Shown in pieces: positions 8,822 through 57,200 of a stretch of 64,000 nt of DNA (position 1 is the first letter of the stretch; each line of letters opens with the position of its first letter). The DNA is taken from assembly GCA_026004415.1 (NCBI GenBank), contig BPJC01000003.1:49178-113177 (forward strand), written 5' to 3'. The position numbers were made by a program, and so were the translations under genes. The notes under the pieces were generated by a model, which was not told the origin of the DNA, made no database searches, and saw only the letters and a list, made by a program, of their open reading frames with translations. This stretch comes from Patescibacteria group bacterium (GTDB taxonomy: Bacteria > Patescibacteriota > Microgenomatia > UBA1406 > GWC2-37-13).

Positions 8822-9653
8822 ATGTTTGATACGCATTGCCATCTTAACTTTAAAGCATTTGAGTCCCAGGTTGATGATATTATCAAAGAATCTAAAAACT
8901 ATGGGGTTTATTATTTTATGATACCAGGCACAGATTATGCAACAAGCAAAAGAGCGGTTGAGATATCTGAAAAGTATAAAAATGCATTTTGTTCTGTAGG
9001 TTTGCATCCGCATCATATATATGAGTTTGTTCAAAAAAACATAGATATAGATGATTATGATTTTATAGGTTTTATTAAGGTTTTAGTTGAGTCAGATTCT
9101 GTTAAGGCTATAGGTGAAGTTGGGTTTGACAGACATGTGTATACTAAGACAAAGTATCAGAATTATAAAGTTAATGAAGTTTTTTTGAGTTTACAAAAAA
9201 AGTTGTTTATTAAGCAGTATGATATGGCACTTAAATTAGACAAGAGTTTAATAATTCATTGCAGAGAGGCTGAATCTGATTTGTTGGCTGTACTTGGCGA
9301 TGTGTGGGATAGCAAGATGCAAGGTAGAGCAGTGTTTCATTGTTGTCCCTGCCAGCGGAGATTTGCTTAAGTTTGCTTTAGAGCAAAAAGTTTTTATTGG
9401 AGTTGATGGAGATGCAACCTATGATCCCAGAAAACAGGCTTTTATTAAAAAAGTTCCGTTAGACTTATTAGTTTTGGAGACAGACTCTCCTTTTTTAATG
9501 CCTGAACCTATAAGATCTGAAAGGAGATTTCCAAATACACCAGCAAATTTAAGGTATATTGCCGAGATATGCGCTTATCTAAAAGATTTAAGAGTAGATG
9601 AAATAGTAAGAATTACCACTGAAAATGCATTTAAATTATTTAGATTAAAATAA
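8822..9653 (+). pseudogene. tatD: TatD-family metal-dependent hydrolase/DNase, interrupted by a single frameshift
   Basis: ORF 8822..9370 starts MFDTHCHLNF and runs to AVFHCC. ORF 9294..9653, one frame over, continues PASGDLLKFALEQKVFIGVDGDATY...LVLETDSPFL. The switch is at ~9344-9350 (TGTCCCT). Confidence 0.75.
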
Positions 9654-9657
9654 AATT

Positions 9658-10164
9658 GCCTTTTAGTTCCTAACTTTCGATGCCGTTTTTTACTTATAGT
9701 TAGCCTTTTAGTTCCTAACTTTCGATGGATGTGGTTGCTATTCCTTGCCTTTTAGTTCCTAACTTTCGATGTATTTTTTTTCTTTTTTTGGCCTTTTAGT
9801 TCCTAACTTTCGATGGTGTGGTTGCTATTCCTTGCCTTTTAGTTCCTAACTTTCGATGTATTTTTTTTCTTTTTTTGGCCTTTTAGTTCCTAACTTTCGA
9901 TGTAAATTTGTCGTTTTTTTGCCTTTTAGTTCCTAACTTTCGATGGGCACAGGGACACTATTTGCCTTTTAGTTCCTAACTTTCGATGTCTTGCTGTCGT
10001 TTGATTGGCCTTTTAGTTCCTAACTTTCGATGAACAAGTCCAATAAAACTAGCCTTTTAGTTCCTAACTTTCGATGGGAGTTATTATTATGTTTCGCCTT
10101 TTAGTTCCTAACTTTCGATGAAAAGAAAGATTTTATCAAGCCTTTTAGTTCCTAACTTTCGATG
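9658..10164 (-). CRISPR. CRISPR array: 12 identical 25-nt repeats, 11 spacers of 18-20 nt
   Basis: Repeat on + strand is GCCTTTTAGTTCCTAACTTTCGATG, starting at 9658, 9703, 9747, 9791, 9834, 9878, 9921, 9964, 10008, 10052, 10096 and 10140. Minus-strand transcription is inferred: there is no leader room on the low side (tatD stop is 4 nt away), and a minus-strand promoter abuts the repeat at 10164. Confidence 0.97.
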
Positions 10165-10211: not shown

Positions 10212-10241
10212 TTGACATTTATCTATTAGAAATTCTATAAT
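10212..10241 (+). promoter_or_regulatory. Candidate sigma70-type promoter for cas1
   Basis: TTGACA (10212-10217), 18 nt, TATAAT (10236-10241), located 44 nt upstream of the cas1 GTG. Confidence 0.5.
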
Positions 10242-10284: not shown

Positions 10285-11316
10285 GTGAAAATATCAAAAT
10301 ATTTTATTTGGTTACCTTATTTGACCAAAATTAAGGTATATCCAAGTTCAGTTTATTTTGAGTTTAAGGGAGGAGATCTTAAAATTGAATGGTCTAGAAT
10401 TCACTCTATTATGATCTACGGTAGTTCTGTTGATCTTCCTCATGATTTTTTAGACAAATGTTCTTTTTACAAAATCCCGATAGTTTTGCATAGAAGAAAT
10501 GTTGTAAGAGCTGTTTTTATTGCTCCTTGTCTTTCTGGAGATTCTGAGGATATTTTAAGTAAACAGATTTGTTTTAGAGATAACTATAAAAAAAGAGCAT
10601 ATATTGCAAAAAGGTTGCTTTTGGCCAAATTCAAAAGTATGTCTTGGCTTGTGCCTTATCGAAAAGATTATTTATATGGTGTTTCTGATATTGATAAGAT
10701 GGTTTCTTTTGAGGCGCATCACTCTAGAAGGTATTGGAAAGAATATTTTGGTTTATTAGGCAGTAGTTCCAGCAGAAGAGATTCAGATTCAGATTATAAG
10801 AAGGTTTTAGATGCTATTTCTAAGTTTGTCTCTGGTGTTTTGTTAAGATGGGTTGTTTATCATAATTTGAGTCCTTATCATGGATTCATTCATAAGCCTA
10901 ATGACTATCCTTCTTTAGTTTATGATCTTATGGAACCATATAGAGGTTATTTTGATAGGGTAGCTTTTGGTGTCTTTAAAAAAGTTAGTGATGCTGGCAT
11001 TGATAAAAAAAGGTGCCTTGGCCTTGCGATAGAGGAGATAAAAGAGTTTTTAGATATTAAGGTTTATGTTTCTGCAACAAGGCAAGTTGTTAAGTTTAAA
11101 GAGTTGTTGCATGGTGTAGTTATTGCTTTAAGATCTTATCTGTTAGGCAATACAAGAAGGTTTGTTGTTCCTTTGCCCAGCAAGCCAAAAGGTGGAAGAC
11201 CTGTTAATGCAGGTTATAAGCTTTATGGAGGTAACGCTGGTATTACTAATTTTTGGCCTGATACTAAAGAGTTGGCCTATAATTTTGAAAAAATATTCTT
11301 TGTTTCAGATCTGTAG
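10285..11316 (+). CDS. cas1: CRISPR-associated endonuclease Cas1 (stand-alone; no cas2/cas4 partner)
   Basis: 343 aa; EAHHSRRYWKEYF and YHGFIHKPNDYPSLVYDLMEPYR match the Cas1 catalytic H / D-x-x-E-P-(F/Y)-R blocks. Adjacent to the array. GTG start. Confidence 0.9.
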   Translation: MKISKYFIWLPYLTKIKVYPSSVYFEFKGGDLKIEWSRIHSIMIYGSSVDLPHDFLDKCSFYKIPIVLHRRNVVRAVFIAPCLSGDSEDILSKQICFRDNYKKRAYIAKRLLLAKFKSMSWLVPYRKDYLYGVSDIDKMVSFEAHHSRRYWKEYFGLLGSSSSRRDSDSDYKKVLDAISKFVSGVLLRWVVYHNLSPYHGFIHKPNDYPSLVYDLMEPYRGYFDRVAFGVFKKVSDAGIDKKRCLGLAIEEIKEFLDIKVYVSATRQVVKFKELLHGVVIALRSYLLGNTRRFVVPLPSKPKGGRPVNAGYKLYGGNAGITNFWPDTKELAYNFEKIFFVSDL

Positions 11317-14300
11317 CCAACTTATATTTTTTATTGTTTTGTTTTTTAAGAATTCGATAGTTTCTTTGAATGTATCTTTTGATTCATCTTTAGTTTGATT
11401 TTGGTTTCTAAGAAGCATTGTATAACCTCTAACTGCCATAATAAAAGATGCTTGTTTGTCTGCGTCAGCTATGAAGTTGCAGTCTGAGTTTGGACAGATA
11501 AATAAAAAGCTGTTTCCTCTTTTGTTTTTTAAATCATATATTTTTTGTAGGTTATTGTTGTCTTTGTTTGTTTGGATCAGACTTGAACTGCTTTTGTTAA
11601 GAGGAGGTCTTGCAAAGTCCTTGACTATTTTTTGAAACTCTTTCAATGCATTTTTGTTATTGCCAATCTTTGGTATATTTTGGCTGTATGCTTTTAAGGT
11701 TTTGTTCCCTATTGTGATTTTTAGTAAATGTTTGTTTTCTGGGTTTGATTCTATTTTAATGTCTTTTAGGTCGTCTTTACTTATTTCATATAAACTAGTT
11801 TTACATTTGGCGCAGGTATAGCTTGAGGCATATGCGCTGACATGTTTGCCTGGGTATTTACTTCTTTTTCCCCAGATGTGTTCGTGAAGGTTATTGTTTT
11901 CTTGATATACGTCAGATTTTTTTACTGTATTATAGATTTTTGTTGTTCTGCCACTGCCAGTTTCAAAATTACTTATTGAGTATTCGTAGATAATATAGCT
12001 TGGTTTATATTTTAAAATAAGATTGTGAATTTTGTTTCTTAATGAACCAGCGGCATTTTCTCTTACTTGAGCAACTTTGTCACTTTTGTTTTTAAATAGT
12101 CCTTTTCTAGCTTGTTGTTGAATTAGTTGGAAGTTGTCTTTAATTTTGCCTATGTTGGGCTCTATTATAAAGTCTGATTCAAGAATTTCAACCTCTTGGT
12201 CGTTTACTTTAATTACTGAGTAAGCCAATCCATACTCTCCAACATCTATGCCTATTATGGGTCTGTTTAGAGATTCTGGCGCTTTTTGAATTTGTAATAA
12301 ACTTCTGTCGGGATTCTGTAATGGTTCTATATTAAAAGGTATGCTAATGTAAAGTCTGTTTTTATCTCTATTAGTTGGTGTGAATGTTGGTACTTTTTTA
12401 TTTAGATCCCAGATTATTTTGTATTCTTTCTCAAGTATCAAGCTCCACTCACCTAATTTAATTTTATGACTTTGCCAGCTTTTAGGTTTATATAGAAATC
12501 TATCTAAAAATTGGATTTGATAGTATGATGAGTTTATTTTTAATGCATTTGACAGTTGTTCTTCAGATATTTTGCTGTCTGTTATTTGGTTTTTTATGAG
12601 GTTGAGCGCTTTTGTTGATTTGTTTCCTGAATTTTTGGTAAATGTTATTACATAGTTATGCTTATTTGCAACTATGTCTTTTAGGTTTGGCTTGTCTTGG
12701 TTAAGGAGGTCGGAAATTAAAAATAGTTTGTATTTTTTGTCTATAGCTATAAATTGACAGGTGTATTTTGCTGTGTATAGTTCTTGGGTATAGATTGTTG
12801 CAAAGCCTTTTATTTCAGATAGAATAAGAGACTGGAGCAGGTAGTTGTACTCATTTTTGGTTATTTGCTGGCTTTTTATAAGTTTAAGATATGTGTTTGC
12901 TTTTGTGAATGAGTCTGGTATTTTTAGGTCGTTTTTATTGATTATTTCTATTTTTGAGAGCTTGATAAGTTTTGATATTAGATGTCTAGATAAGTCTAAA
13001 AAGTCAAGCAACTGTTCTTTGTTTTTTAATATTTCTGTTGGGTCCTGTTTTATTAAGGATAATAGTTCGTCTATTAGTTGTTTAAAGATTTTGTTTGGTT
13101 GACCGTTTATGTTTATTGTTTTTTGTGTGCCTTTGGCATATTCGCTTTTGTAAAAACAAATATGATTTAATCTATTATTTTTAATAATATCTTTAATCAC
13201 TGGTGCAGTTTTTATTAGTATTCTTGTATAACTTTCTTTGTAATACTGGCTGTTTACAGAGTTTGTTTTTAATTTATTTAATATAAAATTGAGTGTTTTT
13301 CTTAATTCTATTTCATCGTTGAGTTTTTCTATGTCAATTGAGTCAAAGATTAGTTTAAGGTGCTTTAATATAAATTCAGTTCCGGTTTCAATAGTTTCAA
13401 TGGTGTTTTTAAAGATTTTTTCATTGTTTTTTAGAATTACAGTACCGTAAAAACTTGCTGGTCTATATATATTGTTGAAGTATCTTTTTATAAGATGCTC
13501 TGATTCTTCGTTGTTGTCTGATATTTTTTGAAAGTAAAAGTTTGCTTTTTTCTTTAGTTCTGAAATTAGATTTTGAATAACTTCATTTTGTTCTGGGTGT
13601 TGAAGAGTATTCGGGTTGTTTTCTATTATTTCAAGTATTTGTTTCGCTTGTCTACTCACTTCTGTTTTTTGATCTGTTTGATCATCTTGATTGTTGTCTA
13701 TCTCTTTTATAAGTTCTTTAAGGTTGTTTTTGAATTGAGTTGTTTGTTCTATTATGTCTTTTTGTCTTTTTAACATATTACTTATCCAGCTTTTTATTTT
13801 GCCAAAGTTTATTCTATACTCAGACCAGCTATTTATTTCAGGCATAGTAGGTTTCTCTAATTTTTTTGATTGATTAGATAAGTACTCCAGCGCCTTTAGT
13901 ACTTGTTCTTGTTCTTCTTGTTGATATTTATAGATTTTGTTGATTGCTTCAAAGATTTCTGTTGTTCTGTTTTTTTGTAAACTAGTTAAAACTTTGCCGT
14001 AATAGTTTGCCATGCCATTAAAGTTGTCATCTGTTAGAACAATGCTGATTAGTACTTTTTCTATATCGTTAGTTTTTATGTTAATTTTTTCTTTTAACCA
14101 CAACTTTCTTATCTCAATTAGCTGTTCTATAGTTATGTCTTTTTCTTGGGTTATAAGTTCTGGGATTATAATAAATGTCAGTTTATCATATGGTTTGTCT
14201 GGTCTGAGATCATCTAATAATGATTTTTTAAGATCAAATTGTTGTTCCCAGAATTTTATTTGTTCTAAATTGTTCAGCTTAAGTTTTCCTTTTTCGTTAA

Positions 14301-14877
14301 AAAAGGATTCTACTATGAATTCTATAATTTCATTAGCTTGTGGTTGAATAGTTTTGTTTTTTTCATCAGTTATTTGATCTTTTTTTAGTATTTTTAAAAG
14401 CCTATTTTTGAATGATTTTTTAGTTGTTGTTGGTCTCACAGATTCAGACATTAGAATTTCATTAAATATTCCTTCATATGTAAATGTTTGTAGTAATTTA
14501 GAAGATGATTTAGTTATTATTTTTTCAATCAGAGAGTTTTCTTTTAGTATATATTGTTGTGTAAATCCGATAATGGCATTGCCTGATGATTGCCAGATAA
14601 CACCTGCTTTTAAAGAGTCTATCCAGAAGTCAATTATTGTATAAAAATTATGGTTATTGTTATAGTATTGGTAATAGTCATTTAAATTTACGCAACCTCG
14701 GATTTTTAAATCGTCTTTTACAATCGCTGTGGATATTTTTTCTATAAGTTCTTGATTGGTTAAGTTCTTTGAGTATGTTTCAAGTGGATATTTTATGCTT
14801 CTTATAACTGGTTTTTGAGATAATTGTAGTCTTTTCTGATGTAGTTTATAACCTGTGTTTATAAACTTCCTGCTCAC
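11305..14877 (-). CDS. cas12d: Type V single-effector nuclease, Cas12d/CasY-like (1190 aa)
   Basis: - RuvC-I: PIIGIDVGEYGLAY (D878, nt 12244-12246).
- RuvC-II: YIIYEYSISNFE (E965, nt 11983-11985).
- RuvC-III: ADADKQASFIMA (D1140, nt 11458-11460).
- Cys4 insertion: CAKC (1022/1025) ... CPNSDC (1128/1133).
- No HNH. The first ~870 aa have no motif I recognise.
- N-terminal GYKLHQKRLQ...SIKYPL and C-terminal RGNSFLFICP...ADADKQAS resemble CasY proteins as I remember them.
- GTG start immediately after an in-frame TAA. Confidence 0.9.
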   Translation of the reverse strand: MSRKFINTGYKLHQKRLQLSQKPVIRSIKYPLETYSKNLTNQELIEKISTAIVKDDLKIRGCVNLNDYYQYYNNNHNFYTIIDFWIDSLKAGVIWQSSGNAIIGFTQQYILKENSLIEKIITKSSSKLLQTFTYEGIFNEILMSESVRPTTTKKSFKNRLLKILKKDQITDEKNKTIQPQANEIIEFIVESFFNEKGKLKLNNLEQIKFWEQQFDLKKSLLDDLRPDKPYDKLTFIIIPELITQEKDITIEQLIEIRKLWLKEKINIKTNDIEKVLISIVLTDDNFNGMANYYGKVLTSLQKNRTTEIFEAINKIYKYQQEEQEQVLKALEYLSNQSKKLEKPTMPEINSWSEYRINFGKIKSWISNMLKRQKDIIEQTTQFKNNLKELIKEIDNNQDDQTDQKTEVSRQAKQILEIIENNPNTLQHPEQNEVIQNLISELKKKANFYFQKISDNNEESEHLIKRYFNNIYRPASFYGTVILKNNEKIFKNTIETIETGTEFILKHLKLIFDSIDIEKLNDEIELRKTLNFILNKLKTNSVNSQYYKESYTRILIKTAPVIKDIIKNNRLNHICFYKSEYAKGTQKTININGQPNKIFKQLIDELLSLIKQDPTEILKNKEQLLDFLDLSRHLISKLIKLSKIEIINKNDLKIPDSFTKANTYLKLIKSQQITKNEYNYLLQSLILSEIKGFATIYTQELYTAKYTCQFIAIDKKYKLFLISDLLNQDKPNLKDIVANKHNYVITFTKNSGNKSTKALNLIKNQITDSKISEEQLSNALKINSSYYQIQFLDRFLYKPKSWQSHKIKLGEWSLILEKEYKIIWDLNKKVPTFTPTNRDKNRLYISIPFNIEPLQNPDRSLLQIQKAPESLNRPIIGIDVGEYGLAYSVIKVNDQEVEILESDFIIEPNIGKIKDNFQLIQQQARKGLFKNKSDKVAQVRENAAGSLRNKIHNLILKYKPSYIIYEYSISNFETGSGRTTKIYNTVKKSDVYQENNNLHEHIWGKRSKYPGKHVSAYASSYTCAKCKTSLYEISKDDLKDIKIESNPENKHLLKITIGNKTLKAYSQNIPKIGNNKNALKEFQKIVKDFARPPLNKSSSSLIQTNKDNNNLQKIYDLKNKRGNSFLFICPNSDCNFIADADKQASFIMAVRGYTMLLRNQNQTKDESKDTFKETIEFLKNKTIKNISWLQI

Positions 14878-14897
14878 TTAATTAAAAAAATTTTTGT

Positions 14898-14971
14898 GAG
14901 CCTTTGCAGTAAAAGGCAACGATTTACAAAAATGTAAATCGGGAAACCGCAAAGGCTCTGAGTTAGGAACT
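14898..14971 (-). ncRNA. Candidate scoutRNA/tracr-like RNA with repeat-complementary segments
   Basis: - Perfect 10-bp long-range stem: GAGCCTTTGC (14898-14907) / GCAAAGGCTC (14949-14958).
- Inner 8-bp hairpin: GATTTACA-AAAA-TGTAAATC (14921-14940).
- AGTTAGGAACT (14961-14971) is the exact reverse complement of repeat positions 8-18.
- TAAAAGGC (14910-14917) is the reverse complement of repeat positions 1-8.
- Minus strand chosen because of the promoter at 14980-15007 and a downstream U-tract. Strand is not proven. Confidence 0.6.
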
Positions 14972-14979
14972 CAATTAAT

Positions 14980-15007
14980 TTTATATCATATTATTTTAAA
15001 TTGTCAA
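14980..15007 (-). promoter_or_regulatory. Candidate promoter for the anti-repeat RNA / cas12d transcript
   Basis: Minus strand reads TTGACA (15007-15002), a 16-nt spacer ending TGA, then TATAAA (14985-14980). The predicted start is ~14971-14974, at the first anti-repeat segment. Confidence 0.5.
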
Positions 15008-17866: not shown

Positions 17867-19858
17867 ATGTCAATAAAATATAATAAGAGTTTTCTTCAGT
17901 TTTTAGTATTGCCTGCTTTATTGGTTTCTATAATTTTTAGTTACTTTGTTGTTGCCAATAATGATTTGTTGTTTCTTTTACCTAAAGCAGAAGGGGATGT
18001 GACCTTTTATAAAGACTCTTCTAACCCTCCTTTCTTGTTTTTTTTCAACTCTTATGACAACAAGGAGTTTATGTGTTTTCAAAGAGAAAACAGGGAAGCA
18101 GGAGAGGTAGATAAGTCTGTTCCTTGGGATGCCTGGTTGATAAATAAAACTGAAAACTGTACTGATACATGGAATTGGTATTTTAATAGGGTTGGTACTA
18201 CTCCTAATCTGCCTGCAGATAAATCCGGTTATGTTAACTTATGTCGAACGCCACAGTATGATCAAACTGTTTGTTTGTCTAAAGTAAGGCCGCAACAGCC
18301 TACTCCTACTCCACAACCTGATACAGATTTAGAGCCTTCACCAACCTTGACTCCAACACCTGTTCCAGCTGATAATCAGGGTTCAAACTCAACTTCAGAC
18401 AATACTTCATCTAATCCAACACCAACTTCTGCGTCGGTAACAAATACTGCTCAGCTTTGTTTTTACAATACAGCAGAGATTTATATTAATTGTTTAAAAA
18501 CTAAAAATAACTGTGTTTTTTCTACTCATATTAAGTTTAACAATGACGATTCAAGTCTAAAAAATACTGGAGATATAAAACTAGAAAGAAGCAATGATGG
18601 AAAATCTTTTAAACATATTGCTGGCCCTAACAAATGGGAGAAAGATTCTTTAAAGTTTAATTATTCTCCTGAATGGACAGGAGGAGATGTTATGCTGAAT
18701 TTAGATAAAGATAATTCAGCAACAATTTATTGGAAAGGCAAATTCAATGGGTGTGTTGGTTCTGAAAATAAAGAAATTGAAGATATGTTAGAATGTGAGT
18801 TTTCTGTTAATGGTGGATTGCCATCTGTTAAGGGCTCTGGTTGTTATGTAAAAGATATCATAGTTGAGCATGAGACTCAAAAGAGTTCTGATTCTAACTC
18901 TGGTACTTCATCTAATTCCAACTCTGGTACTTCATCTAATTCCAACTCTGGTACTTCATCTAATTCCAGCTCTGGTACTGTATCTAATTCTAACTCTGGT
19001 TCTTCATCTGGCTCCAATTCTGGTACTTCATCTAATTCCAGCTCTGGTACTGCATCTAATTCCAACTCTGGTTCTTCACAAGTTGATGATTCAGGGACCT
19101 CTACGAGTAATGACAGTGGTTCAAGTCAAACTGTAAGCTGTCTTGCAAATTGTTTTTCTACAGCTACAGTTGAGACTGCAGTAAGAAGATGTGTAGTTGA
19201 TAATAATAATAATAATTATAGATGTATACCACAAGTAAATTTGTGTTCTAATGTTTCTTGTAGAGGCGAAGATGAAGGCGTTTTGGTGTCTACAAAATAC
19301 TATAAAAACGAGGATTCTTCTGAGGAGTATCTGTTATATAATTCAAGCAATTGTTCTGGTCAGCCTCAAATGTATAGAGATCAAAGAACTTTAGAGGCTA
19401 TCTGTGGAAAAACAAAGAGAAATATAAGAGTTAGCTATGAAGATTACAGACTGGATCTAAACCATGAACCTGGGTTTTCCAAAGATTTAAAATTGGTTTC
19501 AGCTTATATCTTAGTAATACAAGAAAAAAACGGAATTTATTTCCCGATCTCTGATAATATTTATTTATATAAAGATCAGCAAGACTCTAATATATTTGGT
19601 TATCATTTAAAAAATAACTTTAAAACTATTAGTATAGAGATATCAAAATTTTCTTTTTTATTAACGGATAAGTATAGGATAAATCCTGAAAACAACAAAC
19701 TAAACAGTAATAATTTTGTTATTTTAAATCTAGAATTTGATAGAAATATATCAAATGATATGCCCCATACGATATTTATATTAATAGGTCGTTTTGGTTA
19801 TAAAACAAGTTATGTTTTTTCAAATTTATCAGTTGTTGATTTACAAAATTCTAAATAG
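17867..19858 (+). CDS. Hypothetical secreted/cell-surface protein with PT-rich linker and Ser/Asn-rich tandem repeats
   Basis: N-terminal hydrophobic anchor, a PT-rich stretch (QQPTPTPQPDT...) and (SGTSSNSN)n low complexity. Many Cys. No family recognised. Confidence 0.6.
   Translation: MSIKYNKSFLQFLVLPALLVSIIFSYFVVANNDLLFLLPKAEGDVTFYKDSSNPPFLFFFNSYDNKEFMCFQRENREAGEVDKSVPWDAWLINKTENCTDTWNWYFNRVGTTPNLPADKSGYVNLCRTPQYDQTVCLSKVRPQQPTPTPQPDTDLEPSPTLTPTPVPADNQGSNSTSDNTSSNPTPTSASVTNTAQLCFYNTAEIYINCLKTKNNCVFSTHIKFNNDDSSLKNTGDIKLERSNDGKSFKHIAGPNKWEKDSLKFNYSPEWTGGDVMLNLDKDNSATIYWKGKFNGCVGSENKEIEDMLECEFSVNGGLPSVKGSGCYVKDIIVEHETQKSSDSNSGTSSNSNSGTSSNSNSGTSSNSSSGTVSNSNSGSSSGSNSGTSSNSSSGTASNSNSGSSQVDDSGTSTSNDSGSSQTVSCLANCFSTATVETAVRRCVVDNNNNNYRCIPQVNLCSNVSCRGEDEGVLVSTKYYKNEDSSEEYLLYNSSNCSGQPQMYRDQRTLEAICGKTKRNIRVSYEDYRLDLNHEPGFSKDLKLVSAYILVIQEKNGIYFPISDNIYLYKDQQDSNIFGYHLKNNFKTISIEISKFSFLLTDKYRINPENNKLNSNNFVILNLEFDRNISNDMPHTIFILIGRFGYKTSYVFSNLSVVDLQNSK
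18887..19078 (+). repeat. 24-nt (8-codon) in-frame tandem repeat, ~8 copies
   Basis: TCTGGTACTTCATCTAATTCCAAC and close variants are repeated head to tail from 18899. They encode SGTSSNSN units inside ORF 17867..19858. Confidence 0.9.
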
Positions 19859-52574: not shown

Positions 52575-54209
52575 TTATTTGGGTAATTTTCTAGATCCCA
52601 GTAATAGCTTACTGGTTTTAATTTTTTTTATTAAATCTATTGAGTTTTCAATAGGAGTTATATTTTTTTTCCATCTTTTATCAGAAGGTAAATAACTTCC
52701 AGTTGTGTAAACATTTCCTGTGAAATAACCAGCATAGCAGGTGTAACCTGAAGGGCAGGTGCTATTTACAGATCCTACAATTCCGGCGGCATAGTTCGAT
52801 AAATCATTTTGGTAGCCTATGCCACCGGCAGTAAGCCAGTTATTTCCTGCAGAGTTTAATAAGGTTCCATGAATTGCAACTCTGTAATTAGAACTAGTAC
52901 TTGTTCCTAATTCTTTAGCTATTGCTTCTATGGTGTGGTAACTTCCTGATGAAACAGATGGATCATAAGCATAAATCGATGTAAGTGCGTTATTTGTAGT
53001 ATAAGGAAGGTTTGTTGTTGATGATTTAGCTACATGTAAAATACTATCTGGGTTTGTAAGACCTATTCCAACATTTCCTCCACTTGGGTTGATTATAAAT
53101 TTGGTAGGAGAGTTAGAACTATTATACGCTTGTAGGCCGGTTACACTTGAAACATTTCCAAACAATATATAATCTCCGCTTCCAATAGTTGATCTTATTG
53201 AACCTTGTACATCAAGTTTATACTGCGGATTCGTCGTCCCGATGCCGACATTGCCAGTGTCAACAGTAATTGAACCATCTCTAAAAGATATTTGAGGATC
53301 TGTTGTGCCAGTGTTGTAAGTCCAGGTGAAGACAGAGCCGGAACCCCAAGTTACAGAGGCAAGTTCAGTTGGATCAAAGGCAACAGTTGGAGACCATCCT
53401 TCACCTGCAGTTCCTGTAACATCAATATAATTTCCCGCAGTGATTCCAGCAACATAATTGCCGGTAGTTTCTGATCCTAAGGCAATACAATTTGTACATG
53501 TTATTCCTCCATCTGCATTTATATCTCCTGAGAAATAAGCCGTACCTGCAACATATAGTTTATATGATCCCGGACTCGTCGTTCCGATGCCGACATTGCC
53601 AGTGTCAACAGTAATTGAACCATCTCTAAAAGATATTTGAGGATCTGTTGTGCCAGTGTTGTAAGTCCAGGTGAAGACAGAGCCGGAACCCCAAGTTACA
53701 GAGGCAAGTTCAGTTGGATCAAAGGCAACAGTTGGAGACCATCCTTCACCTGCAGTTCCTGTAACATCAATATAATTTCCCGCAGTGATTCCAGCAACAT
53801 AATTGCCGGTAGTTTCTGATCCTAAGGCAATACAATTTGTACATGTTATTCCTCCATCTGCATTTATATCTCCTGAGAAATAAGCCGTACCTGCAACATA
53901 TAGTTTATATGATCCCGGACTCGTCGTCCCGATGCCGACATTGCCAGTGTCAACAGTAATTGAACCATCTCTAAAAGATATTTGAGGATCTGTTGTGCCA
54001 GTGTTGTAAGTCCAGGTGAAGACAGAGCCGGAACCCCAAGTTACAGAGGCAAGTTCAGTTGGATCAAAGGCAACAGTTGGAGACCATCCTTCACCTGCAG
54101 TTCCTGTAACATCAATATAATTTCCCGCAGTGATTCCAGCAACATAATTGCCGGTAGTTTCTGATCCTAAGGCAATACAATTTGTACATGTTATTCCTCC
54201 ATCTGCATG
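52575..54209 (-). pseudogene. Middle fragment of the giant surface-fibre gene (contains the 3 x 115-aa repeats; no start codon of its own until TTG 53165)
   Basis: The minus-strand frame is open from 54209 to 52575. It encodes three identical 115-aa units (...GNVGIGTTSPGSYKLYVAGTAYFSGDINADGGITCTNC...), then ...GNVGIGTTNPQYKLDVQG..., and ends PSDKRWKKNITPIENSIDLIKK, the start of the S74 domain. The track only reports 52575..53165. Confidence 0.7.
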
Positions 54210-54256
54210 TTATATCTCCTGAGAATATAAGCCGTACCTGCAACATATAGTTTATA
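53222..54256 (-). repeat. Three head-to-tail 345-bp (115-codon) near-perfect tandem repeats inside the giant gene
   Basis: Positions p and p+345 are identical over ~53240-53911 except one mismatch (53238 C vs 53583 T). This is reflected by three identical antisense ORFs at 53292, 53637 and 53982. The top copy carries two extra bases (G 54209 and T 54226). Confidence 0.95.
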
Positions 54257-57200
54257 TGATCCCGGACTCGTCGTCCCGATGCCGACGTTGCCTGTCGCAA
54301 AATAACTATTTCCTCCTGAACCATCTAACCAAATATTGGTAATAATTGAAGGATAGGAACCAAGCGTGACCGTCATTGGTCCTATTCCTATCGCTTTGTT
54401 TACTCTTAAATTGGCGTCATCCCCTGAAGTTTGTAAAAACATTGTTGGTACGGTATTTCCAGTTGCGGTATTGGTATGAATCCAGGCCGGGCCATAGCCC
54501 GTTCCATCATCAGTATAATGAAGGTAAGTTTCAAATGGATAAGTTCCAGATTTAATAATTCCACCATAACCGGTCATACCTATTCCACCAATCCAGATGT
54601 TACCTGCTACTGATAATTTTTCACTAGGATTCGTCGTTCCGATGCCGACGTTGCCCGCTACTGTTAAACCTGCCCAGGGTGACTGTGTTCCGTAGTTGTA
54701 TCCTACACTTAGCGCTCCTGTATATACTTGTGCACCAGAGCTGCCGTAACCAAATCCTATTGCTGTTCCAGAATCATATTCTCTAAGCCAAATATTATTA
54801 ATCCTTATATCTCCTCCTTGAACATCCAACTTCGCCCCCGGATTCGTCGTCCCGATGCCGACGTTGCCTGTTGTTTGTGCAAGTATTGCTCCGCCAGAGA
54901 TTCTTAGAGAGTATCCGTTCATACCAGTACCTGCAGGATCTAATCCAAAGTTTTGGTCAGATTTGTCTAAGAATTTTTCTGCTATTACTGAATTGTTTAC
55001 AGTCAATGACTCTGTGGTTAAATTGGTTGAATATAAAGATCCATTAACATATAGTTTATAAGAACCCGGATTCGTCGTCCCGATGCCGACATTGCCCGAA
55101 GCTGTTATTCTCATGACTTCATTACCTGTATCCGCTCTATTACCATTCCAAGTAACACCAGATCTAAATGTTAGTGGTACATTTCCTCCGACTCCTTCCC
55201 AGCTAATAATAGCTCTTCTTTCTCCTGTAGTATCAGAAACGTCCAAACCTATTGTAGCATCGCCAGTATTACCAACAATTGCAGAAACGACTTGTCCATC
55301 ACCTTGAACCTGTAATTTTTGAGCAGGCCCCGTAGTCCCGATGCCGACGTTTTCTGATTTTATTACCATCTCCGGATCAGACACTCCATCCCCCTGGTTA
55401 AAAACCAGAGGATTTCCTGCACCAAGCCCTTGATCATCCATCCCTATTGTCCAACGGACTGAACTTCCATCTCTAAATTTTATTACTGGATCAGACAAAC
55501 CCGCACCATTCATAAGTATATTCCCGTTGTATACTGTAAGCTTTTCTCCTGGACCCGCCGTCCCAATTCCCACATAACCTGTTGCCCCTTCAATAAACAT
55601 TCGGGTACTAAAACTAAATGTATTTCCACTAGTTAATCCTGTATTTGCCCTAAATTGTATATTTCCATTTGCAAGGAATACTGCAGAGGCTGCATCACTC
55701 CTTGCTGTAAATGACCCCATGTCATGGGTTGCTCCTGCAGTAATGTGCCCCCAGTCAGCATCTGAAGTATATCCGCCTCCTCCTAAAAACAAACCACCTG
55801 AGGTTGTGCCTCCCATGGTGCTTGTTTGCAGGTATAACCCTCCGCCTTGACCATGTTGGACTAGTGCAGCCTCGTTAAGTCCTGTTTTAATATGAAGTCT
55901 CGCCCCTGGACTCGTTGTTCCGATGCCTACATTGCCGGAGGTGTCTATTCTGACAGCTTCAGTCCAATTATCAGTCATAAATCTTAATTGCCCTCCAGTT
56001 TCATCAGAACCGAGACTTAACAGATTTGAATTAGTGTCATAAACTACGTTGGCTACCTGGGTTCCATTTTCTGCCATACTAAATGCAGCTTGATATCCAG
56101 TTGTAGTGTCTGCTTGGATATAAGAGTGAGCTGTTGAATCATATTTAATGCCTATAGTTGATGATCCGGCTATATGCAATTTGTACACTGGACTTGTCGT
56201 TCCGATGCCGACATTGCCATTCATAATTTCAATATCTCCGTCTGTTTGAATTTTTAATCCTTCTACCCAAGTAATATTTGTGTCAGCTGTGCCTGATACT
56301 GCATATCTAAGGCTTATGTCTCCTGTAGATGGCATCGCAATATTTTGTGCTGTTCCAGTATTAGTGTATTTCCAGTTTGATCCATCCCAATAAGCGTTTC
56401 TAGTAAAGAAAGATCCGTTTGCCGCTTGAAGCAAATGAGTTAAGTTCTCAATTTGTAATTTAGATTTTGGATTAGTTGTTCCTATACCAACATTGCCACT
56501 GGCATCTATGACAAATGGAGTTGTGTCTGAGTCTCCTGTTTCATCGTTAACTCTAAAAGAAAATCCTGATCCTAAATTGGTAATCATTAAAGGAACTGCG
56601 CTAGAGTTACTGTTTGTTGCTAGTTTTAAAAGATTTCCTGTTCCTCCTGATGTTGTGGGTGAGTGGTTTATTTCTAAAATTGAGCCAGAAAGTCCTGATG
56701 AGGTAGAGGAGAGGTAAAGAGATCTGCCTGATGTTAGAGAGTTAGCGTTTATAGTAAAAAAATTCTGAGTGCTTGCAGATGTGTTAAAGGTCGTGGTATA
56801 GGTGGAGTGATTGAGTGTTAGGTTGTCTGTTGGGTCAAGCAAGTCGTCCCAGTATAGCGAGTTTGCAGTTATGTTAGTAGTCCAAGATAAAATTCCTGTT
56901 GCATCTGTTTTAAGGTATCCGTTAGCATTTATTGAAGTAGGTAGGGTGTAGGTAATATCCGCTGTTTGGGTTCCAGTTACAAAAGTTGTTGAGTATGCAT
57001 TGTCTCCGGCGCTGATTAAATCGATTTTGCCTGCAGTGTTGTTTGTGCCTGTTGAGGCATCTAATCCTACAGTTATGCCAGAAGAACCTGATATGTGAAG
57101 ATGCGTTGCTGGAGCTGTAGTGCCGATGCCAACATTTCCTGATGTGTCTATTATTACTTGAGGTGTAGTAGCCGCATTTGTTCCAAGACCTAAATACCTT

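Follow-up and report, generated by a model that had tools for sequence, protein, structure and literature searches.

A 1190-residue hypothetical protein from a Patescibacteria genome is a divergent member of the Cas12d (CasY) family

The 64,000-nucleotide stretch of Patescibacteria DNA analysed here (the window) carries a long gene beside cas1 and a CRISPR array, which raises the question of what kind of effector this gene encodes. A sequence-only reading had correctly recognised the product as a type V effector whose C-terminal part holds a split RuvC domain with an inserted zinc finger. It described the ~870 N-terminal residues as unrecognisable, with no visible Cas9, Cas12a WED/REC or OBD signature, implying a new type V subtype in which an N-terminal region with no known Cas12 counterpart is joined to a compact TnpB-like RuvC/Zn module. 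The identical database sequence, GIW62782.1 from a Patescibacteria MAG, is deposited as 'hypothetical protein'. We find that the protein is a divergent yet ordinary Cas12d, a member of a known family, and we consider it very probable that the gene encodes a Cas12d (CasY) nuclease, the only effector of a type V-D CRISPR-Cas system that is complete and lies on the chromosome of this Patescibacteria (CPR) bacterium. Cas12d/CasY systems are reportedly the subject of Burstein 2017 and Harrington 2020, the latter said to be the primary scoutRNA paper.

11305..14877, minus strand: cas12d (casY), type V-D effector, 1190 aa (NF033951, PADLOC Cas12d)

Translation of this ORF gives 1190 aa from a GTG start, and the codon directly before the GTG is an in-frame TAA, as the sequence-only reading had it. 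The start is supported by the 50%-identical homologue P0003, whose ATG lies at the same alignment column. That reading was also right that there is no Shine-Dalgarno upstream of the GTG, because the sequence there is AT-only (aaaaatttttttaattaaGTG). This is normal for these Patescibacteria; in one Roizmanbacteria genome the RBS motif met most often is 'TAA' (Chen 2019, PMC6509639). At the 29-31% GC of this DNA, chance comes nowhere near accounting for an open frame of 1190 codons that has full-length homologues. The four antisense ORFs (12845, 13573, 14012 and 14408; 66-111 aa, with much Phe, Leu, Ile and Ser) fall within cas12d, a gene conserved over its full length, and are best read as artefacts, as had been proposed. 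The Lys/Asn/Ile/Glu richness ascribed to the N-terminal three quarters is there, together with Leu, but the C-terminal part shows it too.

Against the NCBIfam Cas12d/CasY equivalog NF033951 the protein scored 1098 bits (E=0, cutoff 250), with residues 8-1153 aligned to profile positions 2-1178 of 1180, and the PADLOC Cas12d model matched residues 8-1164 at 1.5e-122. A phmmer search of 1.84 billion representatives returned 218 matches (137 at E<=1e-30), many of them single-stretch alignments over residues 8-1180 to proteins of 1150-1300 aa. About 60 or more cluster representatives, the CasY.1/KbCas12d lineage among them, could be aligned end to end; BLASTP against the CasY.1-lineage protein P0040 gave 28% identity over residues 3-1172 (E 1e-114). 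P0040 falls into the same 90% cluster as OJI08769.1, a protein of the WWE3 genome 'bacterium CG09_39_24', with a matching length of 1125 aa. We take this genome to be the CasY.1 source, an assumption that the matching length supports. Identity to any other Cas12d was 28-51%, with 28-31% to the CasY.1 lineage, 34-40% to annotated Cas12d proteins and 50-51% to the nearest relative. Alignment to the Cas12d, Cas12c and TnpB families had been suggested as a check, and Cas12d was the correct name on that list, matching over its full length, whereas Cas12c remained at 57 bits, below its cutoff, and no TnpB-family match was found in Pfam or NCBIfam. The supposedly unrecognisable N-terminus is the standard one of Cas12d, covered by both family models from residue 8.

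What speaks for a new type V subtype, apart from the deposited name, is the silence of other searches. A Pfam scan returned no family, which is uninformative since Pfam has no Cas12d model, and a single-sequence phmmer search of PDB sequences gave only noise (E about 0.2 to TM1367), a 12-sequence profile being required to reach Cas12c among them. The full-length matches to the curated Cas12d models and the end-to-end alignment with the CasY.1 lineage stand against this, as do the match of the N-terminal model alone to Cas12c structures and the conserved REC1 motifs common to Cas12c, described below. A new subtype is refuted by the family-model, structural and lineage matches, and we regard it as highly improbable. 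The uneven spread of recognisable motifs is the only point in favour of two genes having been fused in assembly or annotation, which had been set as a test beforehand. Full-length homologues over residues 8-1180 refute a fusion: dozens of proteins of 1150-1300 aa, taken from independent assemblies, align in a single stretch, and the syntenic locus L001 has a gene of the same length. We give this reading practically no credence.

The fold of the N-terminal part was examined in an AlphaFold2 (AF2) model.

12268..14877, minus strand: residues 1-870, inferred WED-I / REC1 (with PI insertion) / REC2 / WED-II lobes (AF2 model, Foldseek)

The model of residues 1-870 reached a pLDDT of 84.7 and a pTM of 0.78. 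Foldseek, also suggested earlier as a check, makes this region recognisable: its best PDB matches were Cas12c2 (7v94, E 1.7e-18) and Cas12c1 (7vyx, E 2.4e-15) with TM about 0.5, followed by Cas12e (7e-5) and Cas12a (1e-3). The full-length model (pLDDT 79.6, pTM 0.67, low confidence at residues 973-1009) likewise matched Cas12c2 (7.6e-23) and Cas12c1 (2e-22) best, over about 1150-1340 columns. The TM of about 0.5 and rmsd of about 10 Å to Cas12c are as expected for a multi-lobe protein and do not represent a tight superposition. The non-RuvC part of Cas12c consists of WED, REC1, PI and REC2 domains (domain order: PMC9522604). From the order of strands and helices in the predicted model, compared with the published Cas12c2 description (PMC9522604) rather than by residue-level superposition, we place WED-I at about 1-37, PI at about 96-234 (between strands 93-95 and 235-237), REC1 up to about 470, REC2 at about 479-640 and WED-II at about 645-865. 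As modelled, the protein is built like Cas12c, with WED, REC1 carrying an inserted PI, REC2, and RuvC with a zinc TNB, without being a member of the Cas12c family.

These structural matches, together with weak Cas12c HMM matches mostly within residues 739-1150, could be taken to mean that the protein is a Cas12c (type V-C) effector instead. The Cas12c equivalog NF033950 was matched at only 57.3 bits against its cutoff of 250, over residues 739-995 only, compared to 1098 bits for Cas12d, and identity to Cas12c in the structural alignments is about 12-15%. No Cas12d structure was present in the PDB copy (to April 2026), so Cas12c is the best structural match because it is the nearest solved relative. 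The repeat and scoutRNA, described below, differ in sequence from those of Cas12c and resemble those of KbCas12d. Membership in Cas12c is rejected on the family score, and there is very little chance that it is the better name; the protein is a Cas12d.

Dozens of N-terminal columns were invariant in an alignment of 12 homologues, and profile alignment showed sequence homology between a segment of REC1 and Cas12c. Two REC1 motifs are shared with Cas12c, N-x-N and W..YR..FGGK..SW..N..R.

14017..14025, minus strand: N285-F286-N287, invariant REC1 motif (profile alignment, invariance)
13765..13827, minus strand: W351-R371 (WSEYRINFGKIKSWISNMLKR), conserved start of a long REC1 helix (HMM alignment to the 7v93 and 7vyx chains)

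In the profile search, N285-F286-N287 aligned with N297-G-N299 of Cas12c1, where duplex unwinding is the role of N297 and recognition of PAM dG(-1) that of N299 (PMC9723637). Within the helix, W351, Y354, R355, G359, K360, S363, W364, N367 and R371 are invariant, and R355 aligned with R374 of Cas12c1 and R351 of Cas12c2 (7v93 chain numbering being native + 14, as checked against D928), the arginine that reads PAM dT(-2) (PMC9522604, PMC9723637). By this alignment, R355 and N287 are likely the base-reading residues and N285 the unwinding wedge. The mapping of N285/N287/R355 onto Cas12c1 N297/N299/R374 yields a prediction of the way in which Cas12d recognises its T(A/G) PAM.

The five C-terminal motifs named by the sequence-only reading are confirmed by translation, as is the 87-aa spacing between the first two.

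12229..12252, minus strand: RuvC-I GIDVGEYG, residues 876-883, catalytic D878 (invariance, P0040 alignment)
11962..11991, minus strand: RuvC-II IYEYSISNFE, residues 963-972, catalytic E965 (invariance, P0040 alignment)
11479..11814, minus strand: TNB/Nuc zinc-finger insertion between RuvC-II and RuvC-III, bounded by C1022-x2-C1025 and C1128-x4-C1133 (Cys invariance)
11446..11469, minus strand: RuvC-III ADADKQAS, residues 1137-1144, catalytic D1140 (invariance, Cys spacing)

The first cysteine pair is CAKC (residues 1022-1025, 11803-11814) and the second, 106 aa later, CPNSDC (residues 1128-1133, 11479-11496). The catalytic D/E/D assignment held up, as D878, E965, D1138 and D1140 were invariant in the 12 homologues, and so were all four cysteines. 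D878 aligned with P0040 D828 and E965 with P0040 E914; in KbCas12d, D827A and E913A are nuclease-dead (bioRxiv 10.1101/2023.12.12.571249). The distance from D878 to E965 is 87 aa compared to 86 in Cas12c2 and KbCas12d. Cas12c2 has the same CCCC pattern (C1089, C1092, C1189, C1194; PMC9522604), and D1140 lies 7 residues past the last Cys, like Cas12c2 D1201 past C1194 (PMC9522604). TnpB and compact Cas12 (Cas12f) likewise have a split RuvC into which a zinc finger is inserted ahead of RuvC-III, but TnpB-size proteins do not have the ~870 aa of WED/REC/PI lobes present here.

The genes and repeats around the effector were then compared with those of known Cas12d loci.

10285..11316, plus strand: cas1, 343 aa (Pfam Cas_Cas1 6.8e-18; PADLOC Cas1 8e-22)
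9658..10164, minus strand: CRISPR array in which 11 spacers of 18-20 nt separate 12 identical 25-nt repeats, crRNA sense CAUCGAAAGUUAGGAACUAAAAGGC (exact matches)

cas1 is convergent with cas12d, their 3' ends overlapping by 12 nt, and a consensus scan gave it a perfect TTGACA-18-TATAAT at 10212-10241. The convergent arrangement was also found in the related loci L001, L003, L004 and L005, with the 12-nt overlap recurring in L001. Neither cas2 nor cas4 was detected by Pfam and NCBIfam among the neighbouring ORFs scanned, which leaves cas1 as the only adaptation gene here. The 12 repeats are exact matches, of which none would be expected by chance. With the crRNA orientation taken from the KbCas12d crRNA (repeat, then spacer), the array leader lies on the high-coordinate side, where the consensus scan found a promoter-like TTGACA-17-(TG)TATACT (10193-10165, minus strand) abutting the first repeat. 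Published Cas12d hallmarks are 26-nt repeats, 17-19-nt spacers and a cas1-only module (bioRxiv 10.1101/2023.12.12.571249), and the parts of this locus (cas1, 12 repeats, 18-20-nt spacers) match them. A related MAG has the same locus between the same housekeeping genes, namely trmD, GT4 and GT2 glycosyltransferase genes, tatD and recJ.

A candidate scoutRNA lies directly upstream of cas12d.

14898..14972, minus strand: candidate scoutRNA (fold, covariation, KbCas12d layout)
14960-14972, minus strand: 5' hairpin and anti-repeat GAGUUCCUAACUC (fold)
14946-14958 with 14898-14910, minus strand: closing stem (fold)
14941-14946, minus strand: conserved unpaired UUUCCC (fold)
14920-14941, minus strand: inner hairpin (fold)
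14910-14917, minus strand: unpaired dock GCCUUUUA, complementary to the repeat 3' end UAAAAGGC (fold)
14978..15007, minus strand: promoter-like TTGACA-18-TAAAAT, which would start transcription at about 14971 (consensus scan, 11/12 matches, consensus match only)

The candidate RNA folds at -35.1 kcal/mol (z = -8.0). A homologous element is located directly upstream of cas12d in 9 other loci, with compensatory changes in 10 of the 18 consensus pairs, and L001 has a TTGACA...TATAAT corresponding to the promoter-like site. An Rfam scan of the window returned five tRNAs only and no scoutRNA family. The layout, stem / UUUCC / hairpin / GCCUU / stem, is that of the experimentally active KbCas12d scoutRNA1. 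The KbCas12d scoutRNA lies upstream of the array (bioRxiv 10.1101/2023.12.12.571249), whereas the candidate here is immediately upstream of cas12d, with a dock of 8 nt compared to 5. With a family-model match, RuvC triad, N-terminal homology, locus and adjacent candidate scoutRNA, the protein shows the sequence and locus features that mark Cas12d.

A second, 11-nt anti-repeat is present in this clade at the scoutRNA 5' end, as an extra hairpin relative to Cas12d/CasY; it may be a new observation. It suggests a tentative model, to which we would give a little under an even chance, that in the hot-spring Patescibacteria clade the scoutRNA is an extensive tracrRNA-like partner. In this model the 5' hairpin AGUUCCUAACU would unfold and pair over 11 bp with the repeat hairpin AGUUAGGAACU. 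Counted together with the 8-nt dock, this pairing would take in 18 of the 25 repeat nucleotides. The scoutRNA itself would derive from the cas12d mRNA, as its 5' leader. In KbCas12d, extended scoutRNA forms are dispensable.

Characterised Cas12d and Cas12c enzymes suggest, by homology, how the system may work. The array would be transcribed from its leader on the minus strand, and each crRNA would keep the 3' part of the 25-nt repeat followed by an 18-20-nt spacer. The scoutRNA would pair with the repeat via its unpaired dock and, in this clade, probably also via the 11-nt 5' anti-repeat, and both RNAs would be bound by WED and RuvC surfaces of the protein. The N-terminal 870 residues, as WED, REC1, PI and REC2 lobes, would grip the guide:target heteroduplex and recognise a short 5'-T(A/G) PAM. 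RuvC (D878, E965, D1140) with its CCCC zinc-finger TNB insertion would cut both DNA strands and, once activated, ssDNA in trans. Adaptation would be served by Cas1 alone.

The cutting step could have been lost in a true Cas12d homologue, which might then do no more than bind DNA and repress transcription, the role proposed for Cas12c2, or belong to a decaying locus. Cas12c2 and OspCas12c, with intact triads, bind DNA without cleaving dsDNA in vitro (PMC9522604), and one CasY from Roizmanbacteria is in fragments and probably inactive (PMC6509639). In the present locus, the array contains a duplicated two-spacer block and the neighbouring tatD looks frameshifted relative to the related MAG. Exact-match scans of viral_contigs with spacers 4, 5 and 10 found no protospacer, although 18-19-nt spacers give such scans little power, and within the window no spacer target was found at <=2 mismatches, apart from that of a low-complexity poly-A spacer. 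Several features speak against such a loss. The ORF is unbroken and retains every residue that is invariant in the family, the 12 repeats do not differ from one another, and the scoutRNA, dock and promoter-like sites are intact. KbCas12d cuts dsDNA in the assays of bioRxiv 10.1101/2023.12.12.571249, as does CasY15, cited in its introduction. We believe loss of cutting to be unlikely, and a Cas12d that would cut dsDNA is the preferred reading.

The protein shares with Cas12d/CasY (CasY.1 = KbCas12d from Katanobacteria WWE3; hot-spring Roizmanbacteria/Woesebacteria CasY, PMC6509639) a length of ~1200 aa, full-length sequence homology, the RuvC D/E/D triad and the CCCC zinc finger. The likeness extends to the cas1-only locus, a ~25-26-nt repeat with an AAAGGC end, 17-20-nt spacers, the scoutRNA layout with its GCCUU dock, and a CPR (Patescibacteria) host. 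With Cas12c (7V93/7V94 Cas12c2, 7VYX Cas12c1) it shares the predicted fold, the WED-REC1(PI)-REC2-WED-RuvC(TNB) order deduced from the fold match, the 86-87-aa D-to-E distance, the CxxC...CxxxxC finger and, as far as homology suggests, short T-containing PAMs, short guides and scoutRNA/tracrRNA dependence.

These findings leave knowledge of type V systems unchanged. They do correct an annotation: GIW62782.1 and its 50%-identical relative, both deposited as hypothetical proteins, are Cas12d effectors with complete loci. The name of the MAG (KatS3mg series) suggests a hot-spring origin, which we presume here. If so, a divergent orthologue from a hot spring with a compact, well-defined scoutRNA could suit structural work and might offer a thermotolerant short-guide, short-PAM editor.

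Translation of the exact coordinates bore out the cas12d open reading frame and all of the motifs that the sequence-only reading had listed in it:

11305..14877, minus strand: cas12d ORF, 1190 codons, GTG start
residues 876-883 of its product: GIDVGEYG
residues 963-972: IYEYSISNFE
residues 1022-1025: CAKC
residues 1128-1133: CPNSDC
residues 1137-1144: ADADKQAS

The D878-E965 spacing was 87 residues, as that reading had given, and its description of the start also stood: the codon before the GTG is an in-frame TAA, and no Shine-Dalgarno precedes it, the 20 nt upstream being A and T only. Four antisense ORFs (66-111 aa) are present. They had been regarded as composition artefacts, and their richness in Phe/Leu/Ile/Ser is expected when a Lys/Asn/Glu/Ile-rich gene is read as its reverse complement.

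A Pfam scan of the 1190-aa protein returned no match. The NCBI curated Cas12d/CasY equivalog NF033951 matched at 1098 bits (E = 0; cutoff 250), spanning residues 8-1153 and model positions 2-1178 of 1180, and PADLOC Cas12d models matched residues 8-1164 (1.5e-122). Alignment to Cas12d, one of the checks proposed earlier, was the right choice. The Cas12c model reached just 57 bits against a cutoff of 250 over residues 739-995 only. An identical sequence from a Patescibacteria MAG is already deposited under GIW62782.1 ('hypothetical protein KatS3mg090_0608'); the closest relative, from another KatS3mg MAG, is 50% identical, and those that come after it share 34-39% identity and include two with a Cas12d annotation. 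Exhaustive phmmer searching of 1.84 billion cluster representatives found 218 relatives (137 at E<=1e-30), many of them 1150-1300 aa long and aligned over residues 8-1180 in one stretch. A CasY.1-lineage homologue, P0040 (1125 aa), falls in one 90% cluster with OJI08769.1 of the WWE3 genome 'bacterium CG09_39_24', which we take to be the source of CasY.1/KbCas12d, as the 1125-aa length match supports. P0040 aligned with residues 3 to 1172 of the cas12d product (28% identity, E 1e-114). Single-stretch, full-length alignments to relatives including P0040 ruled out a fusion of two genes and, with the full-length models, show that the N-terminal three quarters are an ordinary Cas12d N-terminus. 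The N-terminal ~870 aa had been called unrecognisable; both sets of Cas12d models cover them from residue 8, and the claim reflects the limit of reading by eye. The protein is a new, divergent, mis-annotated Cas12d in a canonical type V-D locus.

Another representative from the same search, P0144 (2026 aa), matched in the RuvC region only (query residues 871-1043 against its 1621-1805) and may be either a far larger protein that carries a Cas12d-like nuclease domain or the product of a mis-called gene. Two short (3-5 kb) Cas12d contigs (L008, L013) belong to MAGs that bear the labels Gammaproteobacteria and Bdellovibrionales; because of this size and their CPR-type repeat, mis-binning is the probable cause, not the presence of Cas12d beyond the CPR.

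The complete protein, modelled with AlphaFold2 on a 12-sequence alignment (pLDDT 79.6, pTM 0.67), had its best PDB matches in Cas12c2 (7v94, E 7.6e-23) and Cas12c1 (7vyx, E 2e-22, TM 0.55), covering about 1150-1340 columns, with Cas12a next at about 1e-10; the PDB copy searched held no Cas12d entries. To exclude a RuvC-driven match, residues 1-870 were modelled alone (pLDDT 84.7, pTM 0.78). This model again matched Cas12c2 (1.7e-18) and Cas12c1 (2.4e-15) with TM of about 0.5, followed by Cas12e (7e-5) and Cas12a (1e-3); modelling and structure search of this region were the check that the sequence-only reading had suggested. In the model, a short strand (residues 24-34) and a helical segment are followed by lone strands 93-95 and 235-237 flanking a helical insert; then come a long run of helices, ending near residue 640, and a beta-rich part at 645-852. 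This order agrees with the published description of Cas12c2, where the PI domain interrupts REC1 between two of its strands (PMC9522604), and on this model we assigned residues 1-870, with approximate boundaries, to putative WED-I, REC1 with the PI insertion, REC2 and WED-II.

Homology of REC1 to Cas12c was detectable at the sequence level as well: the family profile matched Cas12c2 (3.7e-14) and Cas12c1 (1.8e-12) in two stretches, one within RuvC and the other at profile positions about 270-427. The non-RuvC sequence of Cas12c is reported to resemble no effector other than Cas12d (PMC9723637). In the profile alignment, the invariant N285-F-N287 aligned with N297-G-N299 of Cas12c1, and the invariant R355 with R374 of Cas12c1 and R351 of Cas12c2. 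In Cas12c, N297 acts as a wedge that opens the duplex, and the TG/TN PAM is read at dG(-1) by N299 and at dT(-2) by R374/R351 (PMC9723637, PMC9522604). By analogy, we infer that Cas12d would read its reported 5'-TA/TG PAM as Cas12c does.

The assignment of the catalytic D/E/D survived its refutation test, since D878, E965, D1138 and D1140, together with C1022, C1025, C1128 and C1133, were invariant in the 12-sequence alignment. The aligned counterparts of D878 and E965 in P0040 are D828 and E914; KbCas12d, a characterised Cas12d, bound DNA without cutting it when carrying D827A or E913A (10.1101/2023.12.12.571249; its numbering is one below that of P0040 used here). In Cas12c2, the key residues are D928, E1014 and D1201 and the zinc cysteines C1089, C1092, C1189 and C1194 (PMC9522604). 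At 87 residues, the D-to-E distance is one longer than that of Cas12c2 (86); the cysteine pairs are separated by 106 residues here and by 100 in Cas12c2. The last cysteine lies 7 residues before the RuvC-III Asp in both, and by this shared spacing the third catalytic residue would be D1140. The region following RuvC-II (ETGSGRTTKIY..VK.SD...WG; residues 973-1009, 11851-11959, minus strand) is among the most conserved of the family, yet no other long stretch of the model has a pLDDT below 50; this is probably a lid-like element ordered only upon nucleic-acid binding.

Around cas12d the following features were found:

10285-11316, plus strand: cas1 (Pfam 6.8e-18)
9658-10164: CRISPR array, 12 identical 25-nt repeats and 11 spacers of 18-20 nt
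14972-14898, minus strand: candidate scoutRNA, 75 nt (fold -35.1 kcal/mol, z = -8.0)
adjoining the first repeat, minus strand: promoter-like TTGACA-17-(TG)TATACT
before cas1: promoter-like, perfect TTGACA-18-TATAAT
15007-14978, before the scoutRNA: promoter-like TTGACA-18-TAAAAT

The promoter-like sites lie at expected places, yet their regional total is no more than expected by chance. cas1 is convergent with cas12d, overlapping it by 12 nt, and no cas2 or cas4 was seen at the locus. In a related MAG (L001), the cas12d/cas1/array unit is flanked by the same trmD, GT4 glycosyltransferase gene, tatD, GT2 glycosyltransferase gene and recJ, so the system is chromosomal and vertically shared. The TatD-family gene adjoining the array (8822-9653, plus strand) is split into two overlapping ORFs, 8822-9370 (Pfam profile positions 1-154) and 9294-9653 (161-253), an apparent frameshift that reflects either a pseudogene or an assembly error; in L001 it is a single 276-aa gene.

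Read in crRNA sense, the repeat has the sequence CAUCGAAAGUUAGGAACUAAAAGGC; KbCas12d has the repeat CUCCGAAAGUAUCGGGGAUAAAGGC, with a spacer of 18 nt after it. Near-identical repeats, CATCGAA[AG]GTTAGGAAC[CT]AAAAGGC, occur in seven homologous loci (L001, L003, L005, L007, L008, L009, L014) with Cas12d proteins only 36-50% identical; on these comparisons the guide-RNA scaffold is far more constrained than the protein. Within the array (9728-9877), the low-complexity spacers 7 and 9 share one sequence (CAAAAAAAGAAAAAAAAUA) and spacers 8 and 10 are alike but for a single-base indel, showing that a two-unit (88-bp) block was duplicated. Two further repeats, a 345-bp unit present 3.1 times at 99% identity (53226-54292, the highest-GC part of the window) and a 24-bp unit present 8 times (18887-19078, within ORF 17867-19858), are unconnected with the CRISPR locus.

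The candidate scoutRNA folds into a 5' hairpin and a 13-bp closing stem enclosing unpaired UUUCCC, an inner hairpin and unpaired GCCUUUUA, a dock complementary to the repeat 3' end. It shares the layout of scoutRNA1, the minimal active scoutRNA of KbCas12d (aaaggg-uuucc-hairpin-uuagccuucca-cccuuu). Nine other loci carry a homologous element immediately upstream of cas12d, with compensatory changes in 10 of the 18 consensus pairs. Taken together, fold, conservation, compensatory pairs and layout make this element very likely the scoutRNA. At all loci cas12d starts 10-50 nt past the closing stem (14878-14898, minus strand, in the window; 3975-4000 in L001; upstream of 4001 in L003, L004 and L005), and across these five loci the interval holds no Shine-Dalgarno and no conserved terminator; a T-run follows the stem by 7 nt in the window and is absent from L001. 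The short gap and lack of a conserved terminator suggest that the scoutRNA is co-transcribed with cas12d, and it may be released by processing from the 5' leader of that mRNA.

The 5' hairpin GAGUUCCUAACUC (14960-14972, minus strand) contains AGUUCCUAACU, an anti-repeat perfectly complementary to 11 nt of the repeat, AGUUAGGAACU. The two segments co-vary across loci, with flanks that are either A..U or G..C in the two RNAs alike (mixed in L005), and the loop of L004 has ACU/AGU in place of CCU/AGG; independent covariation events number about 2-3, in related loci. RNAcofold predicted that the two RNAs form an 11-bp duplex, at a gain of -9.6 kcal/mol that 0 of 300 shuffled repeats equalled, and predicted this duplex in L004, L005 and L007 too. 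In contrast, scoutRNA1 of KbCas12d lacks the anti-repeat, and the duplex was not predicted there. We regard this evidence for the pairing as suggestive only. The remaining value of the locus lies in the lack of any solved Cas12d structure, in the mapping of PAM residues and in a possible extended scoutRNA:repeat pairing: if the 11-bp duplex and the 8-nt dock both form, they would take up 18 of the 25 nt of the repeat.
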